Below, piece by piece: positions 3,076 through 35,613 of a stretch of 36,769 nucleotides of DNA (positions are counted from its first letter, which is position 1; each line of letters begins with the position of its first letter). Under the pieces are notes generated by a model. It saw only the letters and a program-made list of their open reading frames with translations, was not told where the DNA came from and ran no database searches. The position numbers and the translations under genes are program-made. Source of the stretch: Candidatus Micrarchaeota archaeon (GTDB lineage Archaea; Micrarchaeota; Micrarchaeia; Micrarchaeales; Micrarchaeaceae). The stretch is taken from the NCBI GenBank assembly GCA_027345565.1, contig DAHWIF010000007.1, positions 1 to 36,769 of the forward strand. Reading direction: 5' to 3'.

Positions 3076-4119
3076 ATGGAGCTTGTTGATGCGGCATTGA
3101 GCCAGTCGGCAGGCGTAGGCGACGAGGAGCTCTTCCGCGCAAGGATAGCCGTCTGCGGCGTTGGAGGCGGGGGCAGCAACACGATACAGAGGATAAGCAA
3201 GATGGGCGTGAGGGGGGCGAGCCTGATAGCGATCAACACGGATGGCAAGCACCTGAATACGCTAGATACAAGCATAAGGCGAATACTCATAGGCGGTGCG
3301 CTTACAAGGGGGCTTGGCGCAGGCGGCTTCCCGGAGATAGCGAGCAAGGCGGCGCAGTATTCAAGGAATGAGCTTGAAAGCACGCTAGCCGATTACAACC
3401 TTGTATTCATCACGGCGGGCATGGGCGGCGGGACAGGCACAGGCGCCGCGCCGGTAGTAGCTGAGATAGCGAAGAGGGCAGGTGCAGTTGTAATAGGCAT
3501 TGTAACGTTCCCGTTCTCTCTGGAGCGCGTAAGGATAGAGGTAGCAAGAAAAGGCATAGAGGAGCTCAGGCGCAACATAGACACGCTGATAGTCATAGAC
3601 AACCAGAGGCTCGTCGACCTTTACCCTAACGTCGCGATGGAGCAGGCGTTCAAGATAGCGGATGAGGTGGCGTCCAGGGCCGTAAGAGGGATAACAGAGA
3701 CGATAAACCTGCCTAGCCTGATAAACCTCGATTACGCTGATGTGAAGAACGTTATGGGCAGCGGCGGCCTTGCGATGATAAGCGTGGGCGAAGGCAAGGG
3801 GAACAACAAGGTCGAAGATGTGGTCAACGACACGCTGAAGAACAAGCTGCTCGATGTCGATTACGAAGGAGCCACAAGCGTGCTGATACACATAACAGGC
3901 GGGGAGGACATGACGCTTGGGGAGGCTAATGAGGTCGCAAGAAGGTTGACCGACGTGACATCGCCAAACGCGAGCGTCGTCTGGGGGGCGAGGATAGACC
4001 CATCATACAGCGGAAAGATCGAGGTCATAGCGATATTCACTGGCGTGAAGAGCGAATCCATAATGGGCGGCAGGGGCGATGAGAAGGAGGACTTCGGCCT
4101 TGGCAGCCTACAGTTCTGA
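3076..4119 (+). CDS. ftsZ: Cell division protein FtsZ (FtsZ2-like)
   Basis: GVGGGGSN, AINTD, tubulin signature GMGGGTGTG and T7 loop SLINLDYADV (the LDYAD form is typical of archaeal FtsZ2). Confidence 0.97.
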   Translation: MELVDAALSQSAGVGDEELFRARIAVCGVGGGGSNTIQRISKMGVRGASLIAINTDGKHLNTLDTSIRRILIGGALTRGLGAGGFPEIASKAAQYSRNELESTLADYNLVFITAGMGGGTGTGAAPVVAEIAKRAGAVVIGIVTFPFSLERVRIEVARKGIEELRRNIDTLIVIDNQRLVDLYPNVAMEQAFKIADEVASRAVRGITETINLPSLINLDYADVKNVMGSGGLAMISVGEGKGNNKVEDVVNDTLKNKLLDVDYEGATSVLIHITGGEDMTLGEANEVARRLTDVTSPNASVVWGARIDPSYSGKIEVIAIFTGVKSESIMGGRGDEKEDFGLGSLQF

Positions 4120-6417
4120 GACGGCCGTCGAGCCTCCAGAACCCTTATCGCGCTCCAGCTGGTAAACCTTTGCGGATGTTATCTGCTTCAGGTTATCGTC
4201 GTGCGTTATTATGAACACCTGCTCCACGACCCTCGGCAGCGTGTCGCCAAGTACGCTTATCAGCTTCGATATGCCGCTTGCGTCTATGTTGTGTGTCGGC
4301 TCGTCGAGTATCAGCCATCTTAGGTTTGGCACGACCACCATAGATAGCGCTATCCGCATCGCCAAGCAGGCGATGCTGCGCTCCCCGCCGCTGGCGACCG
4401 CATCCACCTGCACCCAGTCGTTTGCGCCGTTGCTCTGCACGCTCACTTCGAGCAGATAGTCATCGGGCTTCGCGCTCAGCCTTAGCATCTGGTAGTCGGC
4501 ATATGGATAAAGCTCTGGCCATATGCCCTGCATCAGGCTGTTTATCGACTGGGTGAGCCTGCCGCGCAGGAATGCTTCGGTGTCGACAAGCGATGTCTTG
4601 AAGATGTTAAGGCTCTTCAATACGGACCTGCGCCTCTCTATCCTCTGCTGCATCTCCTTTATTCCGTCTATCTGCTTCACCAGGCTTGCAATATTCAAAT
4701 CGAGGCTGGACGCCTGCTTCTCCATGCCTGTGATAGTTGCGGTGAGCTTCGCTAACGCTGCGCTCTTCTCCCTCAGGTTCCTTTGCATCGAATCCATGTC
4801 GCTTTGGCTGACCGTAATCGATTCAGACTCTCGCCTGTTATTCTCTGCTAGCTTCATGCAGTTGTCCATCTCGGCCTCGTACTCGGCCTTTTTCTTGTAG
4901 AGTTCAAGGATGGCGCGTGTGTTCTGCGTTTGTTCTTTCAGCCTCTCTAGCTCTAGCCTCCTGTCCTCAAGCGCCCTTGACGATTCCTCAAGGTCCTTCG
5001 AGAGCCTGGCAAAGTGCTTCCTGTTCCTTTCCAATGCATCCTCGACACCGGCGTATTCCTTCAGCCTGCTGTTTGCGAGCGATAGCGCCGCTATCTCGTC
5101 ACCGATCCTTTTTGCCGCGGCCCTTTTCTGCTCTATCAGCAGGTCGTTTTGCGCTATCTCCTTTTGCAGGGCGTTCGCCTCCTTTTGCTTCGTCTCTATC
5201 AGGCGCTCGCTCATCTCCGCGCCTAGTTCCCTCTCACATATCGGGCATTTCGCAAGGTGTTTCCGCAGCTCCTTGATCGAGGTATCTATGTCAGAGAACC
5301 TGCTCCTGCTAAGCGCCGCACTGTTGACCAGCGCGTTAAGCGATTCGGTCGCTTCGGCGAGCTCCTTTTCAAGCGCGGCTATGTTTCCTAGCTTTGCCTG
5401 TGCCTCTACCTTGATCTTTTCGGCCAGCCTCCGCTCGTCGTTCTTTATGGTCGCCTGTATGTCTGCAGCCTCCTTTGTTATTGATTTTACCACTCTCTCT
5501 GCGCTCTCTATCTCCTCTTTTGACTCCTTCTCTTTGGCCAGCTGCTGGGCTAGGACGTTTGAGGCTGCGGTTTCCATAAGATTCTTCGTCTTTGCATTTA
5601 TCTTTTCAAGCTCCTCCTTCAGCAGCTGCACCCTGCCTGCAAGCTCGGCCGCCTTTTTCAGCAACGCGTCCTTTCTCTTGTACATCTGGCGCTGTTTCTC
5701 GGCAAGGCCCTCGAGCAGCTCCAGCTCCGCCTTTGCCGCAGCTTCGCTGCCCTTCAATGCGCCAATCTCCCTCAACGCAGCGGCTTTCTCTGAAGCCGCC
5801 CTCTCAAGCTGATTCGTCAGCGATACGATATCCATTCCAGCAACTGCGTTCTCCTCGCCGCTGGCTGCAGCTCTTATGTTGTTTATCAGCGTCGTGCAGT
5901 TCTCCTCTGCAGCAGCGAACTGGTCCAGGCCCAGCATGCCATCTATCTGCTTCTTCCTGTCGCCTTTGGCTATGTTCAGGAAGTACTCCAGCCCGTTCTG
6001 CTCTGCATATATCGCCCTTGCGAAAGTGTCGTAATCCACCTTAAGTACGCTCGCTATCTCCTCATTCACCCTGACGGGCTGCGACTGGAGATGCGCGCCG
6101 TTCTTGTCCAGCCTTGCCGTGGTGGATCCGGAGCCGGTTATCCTCCTTGTTACAGTATATTCGTCCCTGCCCGCTTCGAAGGTTAGTTTTACCTCCGCCT
6201 CGTTCTCCTGCGCCGGCCTGTTCTTTATCATCCCTTCCAGTTTGGCCCTCCTCTGTTTTACCGTCGGGAATGTCCCGAACAGCGCGAACGATATAGCTTC
6301 CATCACGGAACTCTTTCCGGAGCCCATTATGCCAACGAGGACATTGACGCCTTTCTGGAACGTCATCTTCGTATGCCCGTGGGTTCTCCAGTTGCGGAGC
6401 TCTATCTCCTTTATCAT
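4108..6417 (-). CDS. rad50: Rad50/SbcC SMC-like ATPase
   Basis: Walker A GIMGSGKSS, Q-loop YAEQ, long coiled coil with central zinc hook CPICE, signature SGGE, Walker B LILDEPT, H-loop ITHD. Start set at MIKEIEL (6417). Overlaps the ftsZ end by 12 nt. Confidence 0.9.
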   Translation of the reverse strand: MIKEIELRNWRTHGHTKMTFQKGVNVLVGIMGSGKSSVMEAISFALFGTFPTVKQRRAKLEGMIKNRPAQENEAEVKLTFEAGRDEYTVTRRITGSGSTTARLDKNGAHLQSQPVRVNEEIASVLKVDYDTFARAIYAEQNGLEYFLNIAKGDRKKQIDGMLGLDQFAAAEENCTTLINNIRAAASGEENAVAGMDIVSLTNQLERAASEKAAALREIGALKGSEAAAKAELELLEGLAEKQRQMYKRKDALLKKAAELAGRVQLLKEELEKINAKTKNLMETAASNVLAQQLAKEKESKEEIESAERVVKSITKEAADIQATIKNDERRLAEKIKVEAQAKLGNIAALEKELAEATESLNALVNSAALSRSRFSDIDTSIKELRKHLAKCPICERELGAEMSERLIETKQKEANALQKEIAQNDLLIEQKRAAAKRIGDEIAALSLANSRLKEYAGVEDALERNRKHFARLSKDLEESSRALEDRRLELERLKEQTQNTRAILELYKKKAEYEAEMDNCMKLAENNRRESESITVSQSDMDSMQRNLREKSAALAKLTATITGMEKQASSLDLNIASLVKQIDGIKEMQQRIERRRSVLKSLNIFKTSLVDTEAFLRGRLTQSINSLMQGIWPELYPYADYQMLRLSAKPDDYLLEVSVQSNGANDWVQVDAVASGGERSIACLAMRIALSMVVVPNLRWLILDEPTHNIDASGISKLISVLGDTLPRVVEQVFIITHDDNLKQITSAKVYQLERDKGSGGSTAVSEL

Positions 6418-6465
6418 ACGACCAAGCCAGCATCGCATTTCAGCTATAAAATGCTATCGAAGCCG

Positions 6466-26730: not shown

Positions 26731-27435
26731 CTATGGGATGACAGGCCCGTATACCGGCGCCGAGAGGATGCTGGTTAGGGCGACGCTGCTGAAGATGAGC
26801 GCTATGAGGAGTATTATGAACAGCGTGACGAGGTACACTCCGAAGGCGTGCAGCCTGTCTATGCGCTGCTGGTTCGAGATCGCTATTATCCCGTTTATGA
26901 AGCCCCATACCGTGACTATTGCTAGTATAACATATCCAAATACCGGTATGAAAAGAAGCCAGTACAGCGCCAGTGCGGGTAGCGCCCCGTACATCACCCC
27001 TGTGAAGGTCCTGTCCCAAGGCCTCTTGAACTCCCTGAGGAAAGACTTGCCTATCAGGTGATAGATAAGCGAGTCTATGAATATGCCTATCACAGGCAGT
27101 ATGAGCAGGAATACTACGTCAGCGAGGAAGACAGCGCCAACAGCCCCTACGCTCGGTGCGACGTTCGCTATGAAGCCGTCGAATATCGAGAAGTAGTTGT
27201 GTGGCCCGCAGCTTATGCTAGTCGTCGGGTTGACCGTTGAAACCGGGCAGGCGTATGCTGCTGCCCCTATCGTACTGTAGTAGATCGACCCTATGATAAG
27301 GAAGAGTATGAATGGGATTACCGCCACAGTATAGTAAACCTTAAGCGCATGGCCTATGCTCATCTCCTTTTTCGTGTCATCCCCAGGATGAATCAGCGAT
27401 CCGAACCCGTTCTTTAGGTCTCGCGAGAAAGTCAC
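26731..27435 (-). CDS. Yip1-family multi-pass membrane protein
   Basis: SLIHP at the N-terminus, about 5 TM helices, YHLIGK..L, TFTGVMYGALP and W..INGII pattern typical of Yip1 domains. Start uncertain (GTG 27435 chosen). Confidence 0.7.
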   Translation of the reverse strand: MTFSRDLKNGFGSLIHPGDDTKKEMSIGHALKVYYTVAVIPFILFLIIGSIYYSTIGAAAYACPVSTVNPTTSISCGPHNYFSIFDGFIANVAPSVGAVGAVFLADVVFLLILPVIGIFIDSLIYHLIGKSFLREFKRPWDRTFTGVMYGALPALALYWLLFIPVFGYVILAIVTVWGFINGIIAISNQQRIDRLHAFGVYLVTLFIILLIALIFSSVALTSILSAPVYGPVIP

Positions 27436-27550
27436 GCAATCACATAAATGCTTCAAAAGGAGCATTTAAATTCTTATCGCAAGCTCCGCAAACCGTTTGG
27501 GTCTGAGACTACCACGCCATATTGCTGGCTGCGCCCACATGCCATCTGCA

Positions 27551-29245
27551 TCAAACCGCGAAAGCGTTCGCAATCTCGTCCGCACGGAAGACCGAGACCG
27601 CGTCGCTGCCGAACGCGTCCTTGTAGAACTTTGCGGCATTGGCGTTCACGAAAACGATCACGCTGCCGTACTCTTTTGCTCTCGCCGCAAGCATCCTCGA
27701 AGTGCTCTGTGCACTTTTCCTCCCTGTCTCGTACTCTATCGCTGTCTTCTTCCCGTTTATGTATGCGACTACATCCGGACCCATCGAGTTGTTCATAACG
27801 TAGTGCCTTATGCCTAGCTCTGAGAGACGTTCCGATATCTTCCTTACGTGGAGCTCGTGCTCTATGCTCCTAGAAGGGTTCTTTCTCATCACATAGCTCT
27901 TGCCGTTATGCTCCATCGTTTCCACCACACCTTTTTCCACGAGCGCCCGCACAGCTTCATGCCCTATCTCGCGCTCCGCTGTGCCGTAGTCTGTCAGGGT
28001 GGCGAGCCTGTACGATTCCGCATTGTCGACTACGCTTTCCGCTACTCCGATGCGCTCTATGGTTTCGCTGATGCGCCTGGCTGAAGGCGTCTCGACCACG
28101 ACAGGCGTTTTCATGAGCCCGCTCACAACCATCGCCTCGTTCTGCCTCAGGGACCTCAGCTTGCCCCTTACCAAGTCCCTCTCCGCAGGATCGCTGCCGG
28201 ACATGGCGCTCGACACGTACAATATCTCTGACGGATCTCTCGGATAGAATGATATGAGGGTCGACGCATTCGCGAGTATCTGCCTGTCGAGGTTTGCGGT
28301 CACGTGCGTCGCTATTATCACCCCTGCGCCGTACTTCCTCCCCTCCTCGACTATGCTCCTTATCGCGCTGAACTCCCTCTGCGTGCCTAGCAGGAACTGC
28401 GCCTCGTCTATCATCACGAAGATCCTTAGCCCCAGCTCCCGCTCGTTGCCCTTCATGCTCAGGTATATCCTCTTCAGCAGCTCGTGTATGTATATGGTGC
28501 GCGCCTCGCCGCTCTTCAGACCTGCAAGCGAGAACGAGCTTATGCCGGTGGCAAGCCCCTCTACCGACACGGGGTTGCGGGTGAACGCGCCGTTCCTTAG
28601 CAGCGATATCTTCTCGCGCAGGTGCATCAGGGTATTTAGCTCCGCAGCGCCCTTTGCGTTCCTTATGAACACGCTGAGCTCACCCATGAGGTCGTTCATG
28701 TCGGGAGCCCCCTTGCCCTGCCCCTTCTTCCTGTAGGTGTAGTAGAGGCACTGGCTCAGCTTGGTCGCCTGTATGTGGCCTAGCCCGTATACCCTTTTGA
28801 ACAGTGATACGAGCTCCGCTATGCGCTCCTGCATGGACAGTCCGTTCAGCTCAAGTATGTTTATGCCCGAGCTGCGCGCGTCGTGCACCTTTCCATTTAG
28901 CGCCCTAACCAGCCTTTCGTGCTCATTGTGCGCATCGAATACTATGGCGGCTATGCCAATGCGCTTTATGTCCATGAGCATGGACTTGAACAGGGTGCTC
29001 TTGCCGTAGCCGCTCATTCCGACTATTATTATGTGCGGGTTCGGCTCCTTCCTCGGGTCGATCGATATCGTTTTCCTCGCTCTTTTCCACTTGCTGCTGC
29101 GGTAGAGAAGGAGCCTTGGCCCGTTCCTTGCATGCCCGTACGAAACAGCCTTTCCTGAGACAAGAACGAACCTTGCTCTGCCTATCGTCATCGAATGCCT
29201 GTCCTTCTTTCTGAATAATCCAATTATCTTTTTGAGTCCAATCAT
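27551..29245 (-). CDS. HerA/FtsK/VirB4-superfamily (DUF87-like) ATPase fused to a C-terminal PD-(D/E)xK-like nuclease domain
   Basis: NPHIIIVGMSGYGKS (Walker A), IVFDAHNEH, VMIDEAQ (Walker B), EGRKYG (Arg finger); C-terminus SIEHE...GPDVVAYINGKKTAIEYETG. Start set at MIGLKK (29245). Confidence 0.85.
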   Translation of the reverse strand: MIGLKKIIGLFRKKDRHSMTIGRARFVLVSGKAVSYGHARNGPRLLLYRSSKWKRARKTISIDPRKEPNPHIIIVGMSGYGKSTLFKSMLMDIKRIGIAAIVFDAHNEHERLVRALNGKVHDARSSGINILELNGLSMQERIAELVSLFKRVYGLGHIQATKLSQCLYYTYRKKGQGKGAPDMNDLMGELSVFIRNAKGAAELNTLMHLREKISLLRNGAFTRNPVSVEGLATGISSFSLAGLKSGEARTIYIHELLKRIYLSMKGNERELGLRIFVMIDEAQFLLGTQREFSAIRSIVEEGRKYGAGVIIATHVTANLDRQILANASTLISFYPRDPSEILYVSSAMSGSDPAERDLVRGKLRSLRQNEAMVVSGLMKTPVVVETPSARRISETIERIGVAESVVDNAESYRLATLTDYGTAEREIGHEAVRALVEKGVVETMEHNGKSYVMRKNPSRSIEHELHVRKISERLSELGIRHYVMNNSMGPDVVAYINGKKTAIEYETGRKSAQSTSRMLAARAKEYGSVIVFVNANAAKFYKDAFGSDAVSVFRADEIANAFAV

Positions 29246-29307
29246 ATTATCACACATCATCTCGAAAAACATCGCAGTTAAAAACGTTCCTTGCAAAGGA
29301 ATAGCAT

Positions 29308-29428
29308 GCCAGGGTGGCGGAATCTGGTATCGCGCCGGTCTTGAATCTTAGATGTCAAGAGCTGAACTGTGATGCGAAAGAAAACCGGTGCCCGCAAGGG
29401 CTTTAGGGTTCAAATCCCTACCCTGGCG
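29308..29428 (+). tRNA. tRNA-Ser(TGA) with a 37-nt intron (29346-29382) at position 37/38
   Basis: Acceptor stem GCCAGGG/CCCTGGC with G73, D-stem GCG/CGC, anticodon stem CCGGT/ACCGG with loop CT-TGA-A[intron]A, long variable arm GCCC-GCAA-GGGC, T-arm TAGGG-TTCAAAT-CCCTA; CCA not encoded. Confidence 0.92.
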
Positions 29429-29512
29429 AATTCCTCCTTCGATGAAACAATGCACCTTGAGCGTGCGAACCGGAATAAAGCCCTTTTTAAATCCTGCGTG
29501 GAGTAACTTCTG

Positions 29513-30409
29513 ATGCAGCCTTCGATAAAGTTGGGCTACGCTTTCGCGCTGGTAACCAGCATCGCCTATTCGATATGGTACATAGGGGCAGGCGCGCTCC
29601 TCAGGATCGGCGGGCCAGGCGTCTCGCCCCTTTTCCTGCTCTTCGCCATAGAGGCTATATCCGCCTTCCTCGTCTTTCTGGTCGCTGGCGGAAAGATAGG
29701 CGTCGGAAGGCTCTCAGACATAAAGTATCCGATATTATCTGGGCTCTGCTTCGTAGCCGCCAACTACCTGTTCTTTGTGACGATAATAAACAGCGGAGTG
29801 CCTGCGGCGAGCTCGTTCGCATCCGCAGAGATAGTGTTATTCACAGCCCTGCTATGGATCACTACCGGGGGCTATGCCAGACGGTCAACCTATGTCCTTG
29901 GCGCGTTCGTAATAACGATAGGACTCGTATCTGAGAGCCTGGTGGTGCATACCGGTTCGTACGCCCTCAATTTCACCACCATCGGGCTGGGCCTCGGGAT
30001 AGCGACATTTGCGGGGTTGGCCACGTACTTCTATTACAGATCGGTAAGGACCCTGGAGAAAAAGCTTACGACCATGTTCTACATCCAGGGCATACAGGTG
30101 GTCGTTTTCTTCATACTGCTTAACCTGACAAAAGGGGGATACCCCTCGCTCGGCATAAACGTCCTTTTCTGGCCCCTGCTTGTCGGCGTCGGAGCCGCGC
30201 TTTTCCTATCTTTCTACTTCGAGACCGTGATGATGAAGATACTCACGAGGTTCAGGGGAGCCATAGTCGCAACAGGGTACATACTATCGGATTTGCAGCT
30301 GCTCCCCGTGCTTTTCTATTTCCTCGCCGTGGACCCCAGCTCCTGGCAGGTCTATGCGCCTGGTCTTGTGCTCATAACCATAGGCATGGCGCTCCTTGAG
30401 TGGAGGTAA
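29513..30409 (+). CDS. EamA/DMT-family transporter
   Basis: 298 aa, about 10 TM helices in two similar halves (ANYLFFVTI / ATYFYYRSV; GAFVITIG / GLVLITIG). Confidence 0.7.
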   Translation: MQPSIKLGYAFALVTSIAYSIWYIGAGALLRIGGPGVSPLFLLFAIEAISAFLVFLVAGGKIGVGRLSDIKYPILSGLCFVAANYLFFVTIINSGVPAASSFASAEIVLFTALLWITTGGYARRSTYVLGAFVITIGLVSESLVVHTGSYALNFTTIGLGLGIATFAGLATYFYYRSVRTLEKKLTTMFYIQGIQVVVFFILLNLTKGGYPSLGINVLFWPLLVGVGAALFLSFYFETVMMKILTRFRGAIVATGYILSDLQLLPVLFYFLAVDPSSWQVYAPGLVLITIGMALLEWR

Positions 30410-30414
30410 GGCAT

Positions 30415-30490
30415 AAGCCCTGTTTAAAAACTCCGACTGCCCAGAAACCAATAATTCTGTCCAAAAAGCGGGAGTTTACGAACAAGACTC
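30415..30490. repeat. 76-bp element with 20-bp imperfect terminal inverted repeats (MITE/IS-end remnant or hairpin)
   Basis: AAGCCCTGTTTAAAAACTCC (30415-30434) versus the reverse complement of 30471-30490, GAGTCTTGTTCGTAAACTCC: 14/20 identical; inner CAGAA/TTCTG stem. Confidence 0.45.
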
Positions 30491-30541
30491 GAGCCTGCAA
30501 AATCTTAAATATTTGCTATGCGTAGCCTTTGCGGTGGGGCA

Positions 30542-30817
30542 ATGGGAAAAACCGTAGCGCACATGCTGCTCGAAAGGAGGATCGTGGAGGTCCTGCGCGA
30601 GGAACCGTCAGGAATAACGGCGCTGGGACTGCTCGGCAGGCTGGCGGAAAGGTACGGGATGGATTATGTGTCCGATTTCAAGTACAGGGTCCATGCTGAA
30701 AGGAATTTTGCAGCTGTGAACGAAGCCCTCACGGATTTGACCGAGGCTGGCAAGGTGGCCTCCGCATCAAATGGAGTGGAAACCACATATCATCTTCTGA
30801 GGCGCGGCAATGCTTGA
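30542..30817 (+). CDS. Small winged-helix DNA-binding protein
   Basis: RRIVEVLREEPSGITALGL...AVNEALTDLTEAGKV...TYHL wHTH pattern; GGTGGGG SD upstream of ATG 30542. Confidence 0.6.
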   Translation: MGKTVAHMLLERRIVEVLREEPSGITALGLLGRLAERYGMDYVSDFKYRVHAERNFAAVNEALTDLTEAGKVASASNGVETTYHLLRRGNA

Positions 30818-30832
30818 ACCCGATCAAAAGGC

Positions 30833-31357
30833 CTAAAGCCCCGTGAACTCCTTCTTTATCTTGCTCAGCTTTGGCCTTATCACGAAGATGCAGTACGGGT
30901 TTATTGGGTTCTTCTTGTAGAAGTCCTTATGGTAGTCTTCAGCGGGATAGAACGCGCCCAGCCTCTTTACCTCGGTCATGATGTTGCTAGGCAGGCTTTT
31001 TTGGAGATTTGCTATGAAGCGTTCCACCTTGCTCTTCTGCGCAGCGCTCGTATAGAGTATTATTGACCTGTACTGCGTGCCGATGTCGTTGCCCTGCCTG
31101 TTCACCTGCGTAGGGTCGTGCATCTTGAAGAACACCTTGAGTATCTTGCCTAATGGAATAACGCTGGGGTCATACTCGATTTCCAGCACCTCTGCATGGC
31201 CGGTGTTGCCGTTGCACACCTGCTCGTATGTCGGATCCCTTGCGCTGCCGCCCGCATATCCAGGCGTCACCGATACAACGCCCTTGAACATCGAGAACAC
31301 GGCCTCGGTGCACCAGAAACACCCTCCCCCAAGGACTATCTTCTCGGTCTTGGCCAT
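30833..31357 (-). CDS. msrA: Peptide-methionine (S)-S-oxide reductase MsrA
   Basis: GGGCFWCTEA, GYAGG, TGHAEV, HDPT..NRQGNDIGTQYRS, FYPAEDYH and YC; start set at MAKTEK (31357). Confidence 0.96.
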   Translation of the reverse strand: MAKTEKIVLGGGCFWCTEAVFSMFKGVVSVTPGYAGGSARDPTYEQVCNGNTGHAEVLEIEYDPSVIPLGKILKVFFKMHDPTQVNRQGNDIGTQYRSIILYTSAAQKSKVERFIANLQKSLPSNIMTEVKRLGAFYPAEDYHKDFYKKNPINPYCIFVIRPKLSKIKKEFTGL

Positions 31358-31370
31358 CCTCTCATCTGAA

Positions 31371-31835
31371 CTAATACTTCTCTTCTGTGTTGTCAACATC
31401 CGCTATGGCTCCGTCATGGACTACCTCAGTGTGCTTGTCCCGCCTTACCTTGTCGCTGACCCGCTTCCTTGCTGGTATGAAACGCATCGAAAGGGAGTTG
31501 ACACAGTGCCTGACATTTCTCTTCGTCAGCCTCTCCCCGATGAAAACATGGCCGAGGTGTGCACCGCATCTTGAGCACGCTATCTCGACCCTTACACCAT
31601 CAGGGTCGGGCGTCTTCTTCACTGCGCCCCTTATCTCCTGGTCGAACGACGGCCAGCCACAATGAGCGTCGAACTTGCTCTCGGATTTGTACAGGTGCGC
31701 CCCGCATCTCCTGCAGACATACATCCCTTTCTCGAAGAACTGGTCGTATTCGCCTGTGAACGGCATCTCTGTGCCTTTATCGACGATGACAAGCTTCTCC
31801 GCCATGGTTAGCTTCCTGCGCCGCATCGAACCCAT
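31371..31835 (-). CDS. msrB: Peptide-methionine (R)-S-oxide reductase MsrB
   Basis: GTEMPFTG, CRRC and CSRC zinc ligands, KFDAHCGWPSF, HLGHVF and RHCVNS. Confidence 0.96.
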   Translation of the reverse strand: MGSMRRRKLTMAEKLVIVDKGTEMPFTGEYDQFFEKGMYVCRRCGAHLYKSESKFDAHCGWPSFDQEIRGAVKKTPDPDGVRVEIACSRCGAHLGHVFIGERLTKRNVRHCVNSLSMRFIPARKRVSDKVRRDKHTEVVHDGAIADVDNTEEKY

Positions 31836-31877
31836 AATATTTGCGTGAGAAATATTAAATACATACTTTCATGCAAT

Positions 31878-31902
31878 AAAAAGAAAAAGAAAAAAAGAAA
31901 AA
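31878..31902 (-). terminator. Oligo-T terminator on the minus strand
   Basis: AAAAAGAAAAAGAAAAAAAGAAAAA on + (a T-tract on -), directly downstream of the 31909..32196 stop. Confidence 0.6.
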
Positions 31903-31908
31903 CTGTAC

Positions 31909-32196
31909 TTACTTCTGGTACGACTCCTCGTGGTATTCGAGGCCGCTGCTGTCTACATTGCAGATGAACCTGGAGCTGCCACACCCCATTCCTCTCATTC
32001 TTCGGTATAGTTCAGCCCTGTCTGCCATCTCCTTCAACAGCTTTGCTGCCGCATTCGCATTGCGCAGGATCTCCCTTCTCCTGTCCAATGCCTCTTCTTC
32101 GCCAACGAGCTGTACGCCGTACATGCTGTCTACCGATTCCAGGTAGTCCGTTATTGCCGTGTAGAGCTTGCGCTCCTCTGCGTTTATTTGCTCCAT
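31909..32196 (-). CDS. Small hypothetical protein
   Basis: 95-aa helical ORF with GGTG SD and a downstream T-tract terminator. Confidence 0.65.
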   Translation of the reverse strand: MEQINAEERKLYTAITDYLESVDSMYGVQLVGEEEALDRRREILRNANAAAKLLKEMADRAELYRRMRGMGCGSSRFICNVDSSGLEYHEESYQK

Positions 32197-32305
32197 GCAG
32201 GCACCAAAATTCGTTGATCTGCTTGTATTGCGCCGACCGTGCGCTATTTCCTTGCTGGTATATGGAGATTCATCTTTATATACTTTACTATATGTTCATG
32301 CACTA

Positions 32306-32322
32306 AAAGAAAGGTTTTTATA
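32306..32322 (+). promoter_or_regulatory. BRE/TATA promoter of the membrane protein-ATPase operon
   Basis: AAAGAAAGG followed by TTTTTATA (32315-32322); predicted start ~32345, at the first GC-rich hairpin. Confidence 0.55.
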
Positions 32323-32343
32323 TTTTGATATACTTTATTAGAT

Positions 32344-32406
32344 CGCCGCTGCGGGTGTGGGCTGCATGCGGCGCCAAAATTCGGGCCCGCGTGTTCGCGG
32401 GCCTGG
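32344..32406 (+). promoter_or_regulatory. Two tandem GC-rich hairpins, putative structured 5' leader
   Basis: CGCCGCTGCGG/CTGCA(T)GCGGCG (32344-32373) and GGCCCGCG-TGTT-CGCGGGCC (32384-32403), which extends into the GGTG SD at 32405-32408. Confidence 0.5.
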
Positions 32407-32413
32407 TGCTTTC

Positions 32414-32698
32414 ATGCTCTCTGCAAGGGAGTTCTACTCCGCGCGGAAGCGCGGGGATCTCCTTTTCTACGTTGTTGCGCTCGCCGCATCCGCCTTCTTC
32501 GTTGCCGATGGGCTGCTGCGTATGATCGGCTATTCCGGAACTACGATCCCGCTTGCCGCGGTTGCCACTGCCGGCGCGCTGCTTTACTCTTCTGTGGCAT
32601 CTGCGAACGGCAATGGCTTTGCAGTGGCAGGCAGGCTCAAACTTGCAGCGGCTGCCACCGCATTTGTCTCTATACTCGTGCTCGCGCTGGTCCTATGA
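32414..32698 (+). CDS. Small 3-TM membrane protein translationally coupled to the downstream ATPase
   Basis: MLSAREF... (94 aa) with three hydrophobic segments, GGTG SD, and an ATGA stop/start overlap at 32695-32698. Confidence 0.65.
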   Translation: MLSAREFYSARKRGDLLFYVVALAASAFFVADGLLRMIGYSGTTIPLAAVATAGALLYSSVASANGNGFAVAGRLKLAAAATAFVSILVLALVL

Positions 32699-34893
32699 AC
32701 GCCGGGTATTTTGAAGTTGTATCGGTGCCGGACAAGCCCTTCGATAGGGGCCTCTTCCTGGAGACAATAGGCAGGGAGAGCTTCATGATAATATATGAGC
32801 TTGAGAGCAGGTCGTGCCTGCTTGCGCTTGGCCAGAATGCAGCCAACCTGCCTGCTCTGATAAGCGCGGCCGTGCCAGGGCTTGACTTCGTCAATGCCAA
32901 TCGGCCTGCGCCGCAGGGCGCATTCCGCGTCGCCTCATTCTACAGGGGCATCGAGAGCATACCCGAGTCATTCCTATCGGACATTTTCGATATGGGAATG
33001 AAGGGGCTGCTTTGCATCATATTCATACAGCAGGGGGAAGACGAGATAGCCACCTCTAGGGAGTACATCGAGGAGAGGCTTGGCGGCATAAGCGTGGCCA
33101 GGAGCCGTTCGGTGTCGGATTCCGGTCCTGGCAAGCGGACAGGCATGTCGGTCCAGCACAAGGATTTCACAGGGTCTGACGACGCCGCGATGCTTGGCGA
33201 GATGCTTGAATCGCTGAACAGGTCTATCATGGCTAACGGAACTGCATACAAGATCATGTTCGCTGCGTCAAACGATGAAATAATGGGATACATGATGCAG
33301 CGCATGGTGCATCTAGAGTCGCACGTCTTTAAGGGAGACATCGACGGCCTGATAGAGCACGCCGAGAGCTTGAAGGGCCTCTCTTTCGGCGGCGAATTCG
33401 CGCGCAGGTTGATAAACGTATACGGGTCTGCAGGTACGAGCTACACAATCCCTGCGAGGTACATCAGGTCGCACGGGAACATAGCGCTGGGAAGCTTCAT
33501 GAAGGACTCGGTGCATGTGACGGGCGATGTGGTGAAGGTGGACAGCCAGTTGCTGAACCTTGGCTTCATCATAAGCGGGCTGCCTGGCTCTGGAAAGACC
33601 AGGGAGGCGATGGCCGTGCTTGATTCTGTTATGAAGAGCACTGGCGGCACAAAGGTCGTCATAATATCGCCTACTGATGAATGGGGCTCCTTTGCGCTGG
33701 CGCACGGCATGAACCTTGTGAGGATATGCGATGACCGCATACCGGTAAATTTCTTCAGGTGCCCCGAGGGCGCCGACATCCGCAGGTTCTACGAGTCGCT
33801 GGCTATGATACTTTCTTCTGCATCGGCCGCAGGCCCATACAGGAGCCCGATGGAGAAGTGCCTGCTCAACGCCTTCCGGAGAATCTACCAGGGCGGCCGC
33901 GAGCCCGATCCGCTTGCCGTGCATTCAGAGGCGATGGAATCGATAATAAGGATGCATGCGAAGCGTACGAACGCAGGCATAAAGTACACGAAGCACGGGG
34001 AGAACATAAAATCCGCGATGGAGAACCTTGTCGCTGTGCTGCAGATGCCCGAGTATTCGGAACAAAGAGGCATACATATAGAGGAGCTCCTCGACAAGGG
34101 CGTAGTCTTCGACATATCGGGTGCCGGGGTGGAGACGAAGGCGCATTTCTATGCGCTGCTGCTCAACCAGGTGTATTCTATCGCATCTGCGTTCGATTCC
34201 AATGGAGACAACAAGCTGAGGCTTGTGCTCTGCCTCGAGGAGGCGCAGATGGTGCTCAAGGACCAGAAGTCGCCGGTCGTGGAGGACATGCGCTACAGGA
34301 TACAGGACTTCAGGAAGAAGGGCGTCGGGCTTATGCTGCTCGCACACAGCGTATCGGATATAGAGACCGGGATAAGGAGGCTCTGCCAGCTCAAGATGTA
34401 CCTGAAGCAGGCGTCGGACGTTGCAGAGATAGCGGCCGGAGACCTTGTTTTCTCATCTGTAAAGGGCGACGATGTGGCAGCGAAGCTGAAGCATCTCGAT
34501 TCCAGGGTAGGGGCATTGAGCTACATCAGCAGGGAGGGCAGCGAGAAAAGGTCGCGCGATACGGTATTCGTGAGGACTGTGGATTATCCTGACCTCCCTT
34601 CCGTTGCGGCCAACCCCATAACCGAGTATGCAAGGCGCAGGAGAATATCCGCCCCTAGTGCTGTAAGGTGCAACATCATAATAGATGGATCGAGGGGCGA
34701 GGCCGTTGCGGTTCGCATAGTCTACCTTGGTGAAGAGGTATATGAGCATCCAATAGATGTGGTGCCATGCGGCGTTTTCTGTGAACTCATCGAAGGCAGG
34801 AGGTACATGGTAGAGCTGCTCGACCATAGGGGTAGAACGCTGATGAGCGATGTCATTATAGCAAGAGACGTGGTGAGGGTGCGCAACGGATAG
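32695..34893 (+). CDS. HerA/FtsK/VirB4-superfamily ATPase with a ~270-aa N-terminal domain
   Basis: IALG...VKVDSQLLNLGFIISGLPGSGKT (Walker A), IPVNFF, VVFDIS, LCLEEAQ (Walker B), DFRKKGVG (Arg finger). Confidence 0.85.
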   Translation: MNAGYFEVVSVPDKPFDRGLFLETIGRESFMIIYELESRSCLLALGQNAANLPALISAAVPGLDFVNANRPAPQGAFRVASFYRGIESIPESFLSDIFDMGMKGLLCIIFIQQGEDEIATSREYIEERLGGISVARSRSVSDSGPGKRTGMSVQHKDFTGSDDAAMLGEMLESLNRSIMANGTAYKIMFAASNDEIMGYMMQRMVHLESHVFKGDIDGLIEHAESLKGLSFGGEFARRLINVYGSAGTSYTIPARYIRSHGNIALGSFMKDSVHVTGDVVKVDSQLLNLGFIISGLPGSGKTREAMAVLDSVMKSTGGTKVVIISPTDEWGSFALAHGMNLVRICDDRIPVNFFRCPEGADIRRFYESLAMILSSASAAGPYRSPMEKCLLNAFRRIYQGGREPDPLAVHSEAMESIIRMHAKRTNAGIKYTKHGENIKSAMENLVAVLQMPEYSEQRGIHIEELLDKGVVFDISGAGVETKAHFYALLLNQVYSIASAFDSNGDNKLRLVLCLEEAQMVLKDQKSPVVEDMRYRIQDFRKKGVGLMLLAHSVSDIETGIRRLCQLKMYLKQASDVAEIAAGDLVFSSVKGDDVAAKLKHLDSRVGALSYISREGSEKRSRDTVFVRTVDYPDLPSVAANPITEYARRRRISAPSAVRCNIIIDGSRGEAVAVRIVYLGEEVYEHPIDVVPCGVFCELIEGRRYMVELLDHRGRTLMSDVIIARDVVRVRNG

Positions 34894-34953
34894 AGCGCAT
34901 AATAAGTTTTTTTTATATGTTTAAGCATACAAACATATTAGTTGGGTTTTATT

Positions 34954-35193
34954 ATGAAAAGAACAACCGTGCTGCTAGAGAGGGATGTATACGATGGTCT
35001 TGTTAGGGAGAGCCTTCAAGAATACAAAAACACAAAATCGATATCTAAAGTAATGAACAAGCTACTGAAGAGGGCGCTTTCAAACAAAGGGAGGCTTACA
35101 GGGCTCCTGCACTCAAAGAAAGTCGCTTACATCAGTCAAAAGGATTTTGAGAAGTTCAGGAGGGACCTGTCACGTTCGATGATAGAGCGATAG
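34954..35193 (+). CDS. VapB-like antitoxin (ribbon-helix-helix)
   Basis: MKRTTVLLERDVYDGLV...SISKVMNKLLKRAL RHH pattern, directly upstream of a PIN-domain gene. Confidence 0.75.
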   Translation: MKRTTVLLERDVYDGLVRESLQEYKNTKSISKVMNKLLKRALSNKGRLTGLLHSKKVAYISQKDFEKFRRDLSRSMIER

Positions 35194-35613
35194 TTGATAC
35201 AACGTCTGCTGCCTTACTCCAGGATAGGCGTAGCCGCAGATTTATTTAGTATGATGGAGGAAAAGGGCATGCTGATTGAAGATGTAGGTATAAGTTCGGT
35301 TTCTCTATTCAAGCTTCAAGCCAAGGCGGCAAAGCTTGGAGTGCCGGCGAGGTATGTAGCAGATGCGATAGAAGCCATAAATAGTGAATTCAGGGCTGAG
35401 CAGATCCACAACTTAAAAATAATTGAGACAGCCGCAAGCTTGCTGAAATGGCTGAATGACTATGTGGACTGCCTGGTGCTTGCTACCGCAGTGGTCCTGA
35501 AGGAGGACCTGGTGACTGAAGATTCAAGACTTCACAGTTTGAGAGATAGGATAGTCAAAGAATATGGAATCCGAGTGCTAAACTGCAAAGAGTTTCTGGA
35601 GCGGGCCGCCTGA
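35184..35613 (+). pseudogene. vapC: PIN-domain (VapC) toxin, apparently frameshifted/inactivated
   Basis: The body retains DYVDCLVLATA and LVTED. The N-terminal RAIVDTT motif (35184-35204) is in a different frame from LLPYSRIG (35206 onward), and the expected SLFEL reads SLFKL. Confidence 0.65.

Follow-up and report, generated by a model that had tools for sequence, protein, structure and literature searches.

Two VirB4-type ATPases of a Micrarchaeales archaeon: a putative detached tail of a conjugation-like operon beside a stand-alone translocase–nuclease-like protein

Micrarchaeota are tiny, host-dependent archaea, and it is, to our knowledge, not known how they exchange material with other cells or manage DNA repair with so few genes. 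Here we analyse a stretch of 36,769 nucleotides (the window) from a Candidatus Micrarchaeota archaeon of the order Micrarchaeales, which is contig C9 of a 600-kb genome (G000; 16 contigs, 84% complete). The window encodes two large ATPases, A (27551–29296 on the minus strand as the longest open reading frame) and B (32695–34893 on the plus strand). A sequence-only reading had placed both genes at these positions and had proposed that, together with their membrane-protein neighbours, they form one minimal DNA pump. Do the two motors belong to one machine? The best explanation, to which we assign a probability of about 0.65, is that two separate elements, adjacent in this lineage alone, make up the region: the tail of a conjugation-like operon containing B, and a stand-alone ATPase, A. 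Both proteins carry the motifs of divergent HerA/VirB4-superfamily ATPases, as that reading had classed them, and their predicted folds match DndH-C, VirB4, HerA and TrwB at Z 27–35.

We searched 60 related genomes with both ATPase proteins and retrieved 20 neighbourhoods of B. B closes a co-directional gene cluster in 17 of the 20, with the order F2–F1–F3–C–F4–X–(62 aa)–(3TM)–B. The cluster opens with a VirB2-type pilin of ~125 amino acids (aa), which matches the Pfam family T4SS_pilin (PF18895) in 14 of 17 orthologues and TrbC/VirB2 in 8 of 17; the copy in G000 scores 26.7 bits against a cut-off of 26.6. The pilin is followed by a polytopic membrane protein of ~345 aa (F1), a transmembrane (TM)/coiled-coil protein of ~245 aa, a CedB/VirB4-like ATPase of 350–465 aa (C), two soluble proteins of ~215 and ~220 aa (genes 5 and 6), a two-TM protein of ~62 aa and, as genes 8 and 9, a three-TM protein of ~100 aa and B itself. 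ATPase C matches DUF87 (1.8e-15) and CedB (1.2e-19; 70.4 bits against a cut-off of 700). The polytopic protein F1 gave no family match, which counts against a conjugation-like assignment, and it is therefore the pilin, the ATPases and the order of the genes that carry the label "type IV secretion system (T4SS)-like".

In G000 itself the operon is in two pieces. A seven-gene head that includes the 62-aa gene lies on contig C4 (L068:5596–10290), and of the nine genes the window has just the 3-TM gene and B. The break in the window's genus separates the 62-aa gene from the 3-TM gene, and in a second lineage (G038 and G044) B is also found away from C. The split is no assembly artefact, because it recurs in genus-mates and because in one of them (G005) C and B lie 105 kb apart on a single contig. 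Judged by gene content and order, the two genes at 32357–34893 appear to form the detached tail of a Ced/Ted/T4SS-type operon of nine genes that is chromosomally fixed in the order Micrarchaeales, and B very probably belongs to a conjugation-like machine, the cargo of which we infer to be DNA. Since the operon is split and yet both halves are kept, its last two genes appear able to work as a separate unit. The sequence-only reading had also seen no VirB6/CedA-like gene; this holds within the window but not for the genome, where the operon head on contig C4 includes the polytopic membrane protein.

B is predicted from its model, motifs and operon context to be a soluble ATPase of 732 aa. It consists of an N-domain (aa 1–250), a VirB4/TrwB/DndH-like ATPase domain (aa 250–640) and a C-terminal beta domain (aa 650–732). 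The ATPase domain contains a Walker A motif (GLPGSGKT, 295–302), a Walker B motif with two glutamates (LEEA, with EE at 515–516), the sequence FRKKG at 539–543 and a histidine at 551; in the model, helices at 362–465 separate Walker A from Walker B. E515 and E516 are invariant in an alignment of 84 orthologues, bearing out the EE Walker B motif noted earlier, and A has DE at this site. B is nearly undetectable by sequence, with PADLOC mad8 at 7e-8 and a HerA structure (8wiv) in the Protein Data Bank (PDB) at 1.8e-3; its top NCBIfam match, VirB4_plasma, reaches 17 bits where the cut-off is 590, and the NCBIfam scan gave no HerA match. Its predicted structure (predicted local distance difference test, pLDDT, 89.8) is far more telling, as a VIA search with residues 250–640 matched DndH-C at Z 31.1, the VirB4 C-terminal domain at Z 29.3, TrwB at Z 27.7 and HerA at Z 25.6. 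Full-length TrwK aligns with residues 1–640 of the model at a root-mean-square deviation (rmsd) of 14.6. The N-terminal domain of ~270 aa had been described as unknown, and residues 1–260 indeed gave no significant match in Pfam or PDB sequence searches; a protein-atlas feature search with the N-terminus returned only unnamed clusters (0.90–0.92). The whole-model VIA searches with A and B were filled by ATPase matches and hence do not inform on the extra domains of either protein. B has no clear TM segment (maximum 19-residue hydropathy 1.66, compared with the cut-off of 1.6 applied elsewhere). We found 207 homologues of B, and among the 120 listed the source names are all of Micrarchaeota type or probable mislabels.

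Directly upstream of B is the eighth operon gene, at 32357–32698 on the plus strand, which encodes a 3-TM membrane protein of 113 aa from a GTG start, with later ATG starts possible. The two genes overlap in the sequence ATGA at 32695–32698, consistent with the translational coupling that the sequence-only reading had proposed. A gene of 91–131 aa with 2–3 predicted TM segments stands directly upstream of B, with an overlap or a gap of at most 6 nucleotides (nt), at 13 of 21 loci. The orthologues have an N-terminal K/R-x-h-Y motif in common and are just 15–24% identical, and the protein gave no match in Pfam, NCBIfam or PADLOC. A small membrane gene that precedes and overlaps B is reminiscent of the VirB3–VirB4 arrangement. 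We regard the 3-TM protein as a candidate membrane anchor for B; a complex prediction of the two scored 0.00 and, with controls absent, carries no weight either way. About 30 nt before the GTG an AT-rich, TATA-like box can be read on the plus strand (32311–32330, tttttatatttt), which may be the detached tail's own promoter. In the proposed mechanism, B would be the second motor, a hexamer that the 3-TM protein tethers to the membrane, and with ATPase C would power DNA transfer (most likely) or pilus biogenesis.

Judged from its genes, the operon would work like Ced, Ted and the T4SS of monoderms, yet it reaches none of the curated family thresholds. According to the accessible part of the source, Ced of Sulfolobales comprises CedA, CedA1, CedA2 and CedB plus CedD and CedE, and DNA import requires each of the two paralogous ATPases, CedB and CedD (PMC11868833); in another partly accessible report, this import serves recombinational repair (PMC11823120). 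Ted is a system of Thermoproteales, and DPANN and five DPANN lineage-name stems do not occur in the accessible part of its description (PMC9905601). As far as these sources extend, Ced and Ted resemble the present operon in being chromosomal, non-mobile, conjugation-derived sets with a VirB2-type pilin and polytopic membrane proteins, and CedB and CedD of Ced find a parallel in C and B. CedB is also the top NCBIfam match of both A and C. The scores (A 61.7 bits, C 70.4 bits) are, however, far below the equivalog cut-off of 700, and B is barely detectable; gene number and order differ, a 3-TM protein precedes one of the motors, the lineage is DPANN, and the set is known here from genes alone.

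The monoderm T4SS (MPF-FATA: VirB2, VirB3, VirB4, VirB6 and VirD4) offers a second comparison, in that the ATPase domain of B superimposes on the VirB4 C-terminal domain and on TrwB/VirD4 at the Z values given above. B differs in lacking a clear TM segment and a detectable match of its N-domain to that of VirB4, in carrying His for Gln and in its EE Walker B motif. We recognised no relaxase, VirB8 or VirB10, and no search was aimed at a relaxase. Another DPANN lineage with paired VirB4-type ATPases is known from the nanohaloarchaeal SPEARE-type giant proteins, in which, according to the accessible part of the report, a VirB4/TraG-like domain and an adjacent VirB4-like ATPase were proposed to form a T4SS-like host-interaction device (PMC10266531). 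The ATPase of that lineage is fused to a giant surface protein with Ig repeats, and that part of the report describes no VirB2-type pilin operon. A literature search found no paper on the Micrarchaeota genes analysed here, in articles exclusive of the supplements in which annotations could sit, and the operon is apparently undescribed.

ATPase A is a different kind of protein. Its longest open frame (581 aa) opens at a TTG at 29296, but the start is likely the ATG at 29245, because orthologues align from about residue 18; the gene then spans 27551–29245 on the minus strand and encodes a soluble protein of 564 aa, identified by Pfam and NCBIfam matches and by its model. A CedB/VirB4/DndH-like ATPase domain (aa 13–400) is followed by a winged helix-turn-helix (wHTH) at about aa 415–455, which in the model is a helix–strand unit directly after the ATPase domain, and by a PD-(D/E)xK-like module (aa 458–564). 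The ATPase motifs are a Walker A (GMSGYGKS, 76–83), a Walker B with DE at 280–281 (VMIDEA), GRKYG at 302–306 and His314. Matches to Pfam DUF87/HerA, TrwB_AAD_bind and AAA_10 exceed the cut-offs. The top NCBIfam match is CedB (5e-17; 61.7 bits against a cut-off of 700), and VirB4_CagE and HerA (NF040819) score 40.6 and 28.5 bits against cut-offs of 643 and 970. The model (pLDDT 90.3) agrees, since residues 13–400 match DndH-C best (Z 34.8, rmsd 2.3 over 334 aligned residues), with VirB4 at Z 32.3 and HerA (4d2i) at Z 27.6. The nearest relatives outside the family of A are proteins of 550–800 aa with CedD, CedB and VirB4 as their top NCBIfam matches. In one distant relative (P0344, 1149 aa) a single polypeptide has two VirB4/CedD-like ATPase domains in tandem.

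The C-terminal module of A (27554–27874, minus strand) contains IEHE at 461–464, GPD at 489–491 and EYETGRK at 504–510. Nineteen orthologues keep the pattern of IEHE on a helix, GPD on strand 2 and EYETGxK on strand 3, and the core predicted by the model has the order alpha-beta-beta-beta-alpha-beta, with the lysine position displaced. An E, PD and E-x-K set on such a core is what we take to be the layout of PD-(D/E)xK nucleases; the conserved residues and the predicted core fit the fused nuclease-like domain of the sequence-only reading. In two clusters of A orthologues (P0219 and P0233) an HNH domain occupies the site of this module, and an HNH endonuclease at the same site therefore lends independent support to the nuclease reading. 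Weighing against it, Pfam and PDB sequence searches with the module gave only sub-threshold matches (Vsr 0.16, CoiA_nuc 0.014). A protein-atlas feature search with the C-terminus of A again returned only unnamed clusters (0.90–0.92).

A orthologues were found in 50 of the 60 relatives, with an identity of 86% within the genus that drops to about 30% for the sister family. The gene is single-copy and near-universal in the order, and its divergence tracks taxonomy. Its flanks are not conserved: at 19 relatives' loci the genes downstream of A elsewhere include a carbamoyl-phosphate synthase subunit, an isochorismatase-like protein and an SPFH protein. From these matches and the model, A appears to be an order-specific, vertically inherited, stand-alone soluble translocase–nuclease-like protein. 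In G044 the orthologue (G044:C1:152339–153916) lies within an open frame of 1058 aa, about twice the usual length, which may be a fusion or reflect a missed stop.

What might such a protein do? The order has lost the standard archaeal pair for resecting DNA ends. In a sample of 61 genomes of the order, 45 of them at least 90% complete, the NurA profile PF09376 found no match, and a positive control gave signal in 7 named genomes. A second sample, of 150 genomes across the phylum (70 within Micrarchaeales and 80 outside), gave NurA in 1 of 70 (a marginal match of 20.5 bits) compared with 58 of 80, and HerA-type genes, defined by NF040819 at E ≤ 1e-30, in 0 of 70 compared with 30 of 80. The Rad50 hook was present in 58 of the 61 order genomes, including the window's own copy, a protein with SMC_N and zinc-hook matches at 4108–6438 on the minus strand, flanked by FtsZ (3076–4119) and an EF-1-beta-like gene of 112 aa. 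No Mre11, HerA or NurA gene adjoins it, and no search was aimed at Mre11. Two genomes from outside the order that carry an A-like gene were inspected, and both also have NurA; their A-like proteins are without the nuclease module. The sequence-only reading had allowed that one of the ATPases might simply be the housekeeping HerA of a NurA encoded elsewhere; with NurA in none of the 61 genomes, we rejected this candidate for A and for B. Because a motor–nuclease fusion appears where a motor–nuclease pair vanished, A is a candidate non-orthologous replacement, which would thread DNA ends through its ATPase ring and then cut them. Tentatively, and at somewhat short of even odds, we propose that A has taken over the end-resection job of HerA–NurA in an order that kept Rad50.

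The likeness to HerA–NurA is that A joins a ring-translocase fold to a nuclease-like module and fills a phyletic gap in a Rad50-containing lineage. Several observations speak against this role for A. B and its operon are as order-restricted as A (B in 57 of 70 genomes within the order and 2 of 80 outside), so the complementarity with HerA–NurA does not single out A, and the changes probably belong to one evolutionary event. A and NurA are both missing from eight of the 70 order genomes (completeness at least 90% in all eight), which shows A to be dispensable. A falls in the CedB/CedD/VirB4 branch and not with HerA, and it aligns with HerA 4d2i only from chain residue 117 onward, leaving no room for a HAS barrel. 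Its nuclease module is PD-(D/E)xK-like and fused, and the gene never adjoins rad50 and is unlinked to mre11/rad50.

Both ATPases share one unusual residue, which the sequence-only reading had taken as a sign of related or co-evolving partners. At a position that is presumably the gamma-phosphate sensor, A has a histidine in ATH (residues 312–314) and B in LLAH (residues 548–551), kept in at least 90% of the 84 orthologues aligned for each family. In a profile-anchored core alignment of 72 sequences this column is His in 12 of 12 A and 12 of 12 B sequences and Gln in all 48 others (C 18/18, E 12/12, D 2/2 and CedB/CedD-like outgroups 16/16; D and E are further ATPase families described below), and four solved relatives in the alignments (three HerA, one DptH) also have Gln. 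The shared substitution is thus real and peculiar to A and B among the families compared, and the change is probably functionally conservative. Its origin is another matter. By profile comparison (hhalign) A is closer to C (E 9.9e-34) than to B (7.5e-9), and B and C match at 4.9e-10. The trees group A as a clade with a support of 96 in the Shimodaira–Hasegawa-like approximate likelihood ratio test (SH-aLRT), and C, E and D at 93. In both the quick and the careful tree, B stands on a branch of 2.5–2.9 changes per site whose attachment is not settled. The backbone is weak (ultrafast bootstrap, UFBoot, 33–38), which tells against reading much from its branching, and the careful tree does not place A beside B. 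The approximately unbiased (AU) test did not reject an A+B clade (p 0.78), and the tree so constrained was 11.1 log-likelihood units better than the quick free tree. Two A-like proteins from outside the order (403 and 409 aa) lack the nuclease module, keep Gln and group with A at SH-aLRT 91, and the B-like proteins of the same two genomes have His. Gln in the closest outgroup of A means that the two families may have acquired His convergently; once that outgroup is counted, inheritance with reversal and two independent changes need two steps each. With the B branch long, its attachment unsettled and both scenarios equally costly, the His can be called neither inherited nor convergent. The claim of relatedness therefore stands to the extent that an A+B clade is not rejected, and loses force to the extent that the Gln of the A outgroup allows convergence.

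Other ATPases of this kind occur in the relatives. E, a paralogue of ~505 aa, scores 220–243 bits on the ATPase C profile, keeps Gln and was found in 12 of 12 relatives fetched (L069–L080), and not in the 84%-complete G000. Family D (717–747 aa; L081 in G033:C6 and L083 in G010:C1) has GE(T/S)GSGKT and Gln at the sensor position; in G010, a one-contig genus-mate, D is present and A, B and C were not found. In the two genomes from outside the order (L085–L088; G125:C1 and G064:C2), E-like, A-like and B-like genes lie in the same order within about 45–50 kb. The region is syntenic between the two, so this order may be just shared ancestry.

Whether A and B act together can be judged from where they occur. 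Among the 60 relatives, 42 have both genes, 8 only A, 3 only B and 7 neither. In 7 of the 42, A and B lie within 6 kb of each other (six of the window's genus, and G060 in a different arrangement), and in the remaining 35 they are on other contigs or 200–500 kb apart. In the phylum sample 56 genomes have both, 9 only A, 3 only B and 82 neither. A is present in 62 of 70 genomes within the order and 3 of 80 outside, B has the range given above, and outside the order both are found in the same pair of genomes, from another family. Kinship makes the genomes non-independent, and these counts and the gain and loss counts carry no statistical claim. Of the co-occurrence and linkage by which the sequence-only reading would have its model judged, the common phyletic range stands, and the neighbourhood is confined to one genus and G060. 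Its model, in which A, B and their membrane neighbours make up one self-contained two-motor pump, can draw on the adjacency in the window, six genus-mates and G060, on the same His and on the same range. It is largely refuted by synteny, and we consider it highly improbable: the conserved partners of B are the eight upstream operon genes and not A (17 of 20 neighbourhoods, with the head on contig C4 in G000), the membrane neighbour of A is genus-specific, A and B are apart in 35 of 42 relatives, and 9 of 150 genomes have A without B and 3 have B without A. A different link would make A the DNA-processing partner of the conjugation-like machine, as a substitute for the coupling protein or relaxase or as a processor of incoming DNA; its wHTH would bind DNA, its nuclease would cut, and the DNA would be passed to or from the channel driven by B and C. 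The affinity of A to the CedB/CedD/VirB4 branch and to C (9.9e-34) fits such a role. So do its sharing of B's range down to the same two genomes outside the order, the common His with an A+B clade that is not rejected, its adjacency to B in two different arrangements (genus g1 and G060), and the absence of B from 5 of 8 order genomes without A compared with 8 of 62 with A. We nevertheless find it unlikely. A is present in 43 of 48 relatives with the operon, yet 7 of the 12 relatives that yielded neither B nor C retain it, as do 9 phylum-sample genomes without B; the adjacency is conserved only in one genus and one genome, and A is not put beside B in the careful tree. By our own count, single-gene losses (about 9 lineages) outnumber joint losses (about 4 lineages), a count made among kin that are not independent. 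By analogy with Ced import, a partner role of A could coexist with one in repair.

The two roles can also be joined in a single history, in which A and B are sister paralogues, marked by their common His, that arose at the base of Micrarchaeales when HerA–NurA was lost, and form one chromosomal DNA-exchange-and-repair system with the pilus operon; the pilus machine would pass DNA driven by B and C, and A would resect or process it for recombination. We regard this as decidedly unlikely. If true, the order would have a DPANN equivalent of Ced import, linked to homologous recombination. A further possibility, that A is an antiviral ATPase–nuclease of the MADS mad8, DndH or HerA-effector kind, is suggested by its top PADLOC matches (mad8 1.3e-21, DndH 4.2e-17) and by the DndH/DptH C-terminal domain as the top structural match of both A (Z 34.8) and B (Z 31.1). 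Nuclease modules are moreover swapped between A orthologues, as is common in defence proteins. The mad8 match reflects the shared ATPase fold, because the same PADLOC model also matches B (7e-8), and PADLOC found no defence family in the four neighbouring proteins and hence no further MADS or Dnd component. DptH has Gln at the sensor position, and A is single-copy and near-universal in the order, with a divergence that follows taxonomy and with housekeeping neighbours in place of defence islands. Its inheritance is vertical and resembles that of a housekeeping gene, and we consider a defence role very unlikely. The reading that best accommodates these observations remains that of two separate things, an operon tail and a stand-alone A.

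Both parts of that reading are testable in the few cultivated Micrarchaeota co-cultures. The split operon, with both halves kept, gives a handle on the separability of its last two genes. A would be an order-wide motor–nuclease fusion where the standard archaeal HerA–NurA resection pair is missing, and the His-for-Gln change in two families offers a simple mutational probe of the motor mechanism.

The remaining genes of the window are those of an ordinary chromosome, and L10e, FtsZ, Rad50, MCM, MetRS, MsrA/B and mevalonate kinase surround the two ATPases. Downstream of A, at 26731–27465 on the minus strand, is a membrane protein of 244 aa with 5–6 TM segments, which had been called Yip1-like and considered a partner of A. 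Neither Pfam nor NCBIfam backs the label at E values up to 0.5, and nothing beyond multiple TM segments is seen. The gene occurs near A in 4 of 19 relatives' loci, all of the window's genus (L010, L012 and L015, and L011 one gene further), and we rejected it as a partner because the pairing is restricted to that genus; it is not part of a conserved module. The tRNA-Ser reported between the ATPases is at 29308–29428 on the plus strand, 62 nt from the likely start of A and unrelated to the ATPases. It was missed by ARAGORN and found by Rfam (45.1 bits), and by hand reading it is a tRNA-Ser(UGA) that has a long variable arm and is interrupted after position 37 by a 37-nt intron.

The genes between A and B (29513–32196) are not tied to either ATPase. 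The first, at 29513–30409, had been labelled EamA; it encodes a multi-TM protein, and Pfam and NCBIfam give that label no support at E up to 0.5. The msrAB genes were correctly named, MsrA at 30833–31399 (PMSR, 2.5e-62) and MsrB at 31371–31835 (SelR, 6.5e-41). They are flanked by genes for a 99-aa protein (30518–30817, plus strand) and a 95-aa protein (31909–32196, minus strand), both without a family match, which recur only in G009 of the same genus. Directly downstream of B, at 34942–35613 on the plus strand, an 83-aa protein with a weak VapB-type match (0.11) and a PIN-domain protein (1.5e-4, just below the cut-off) probably form a VapBC-type toxin–antitoxin pair.

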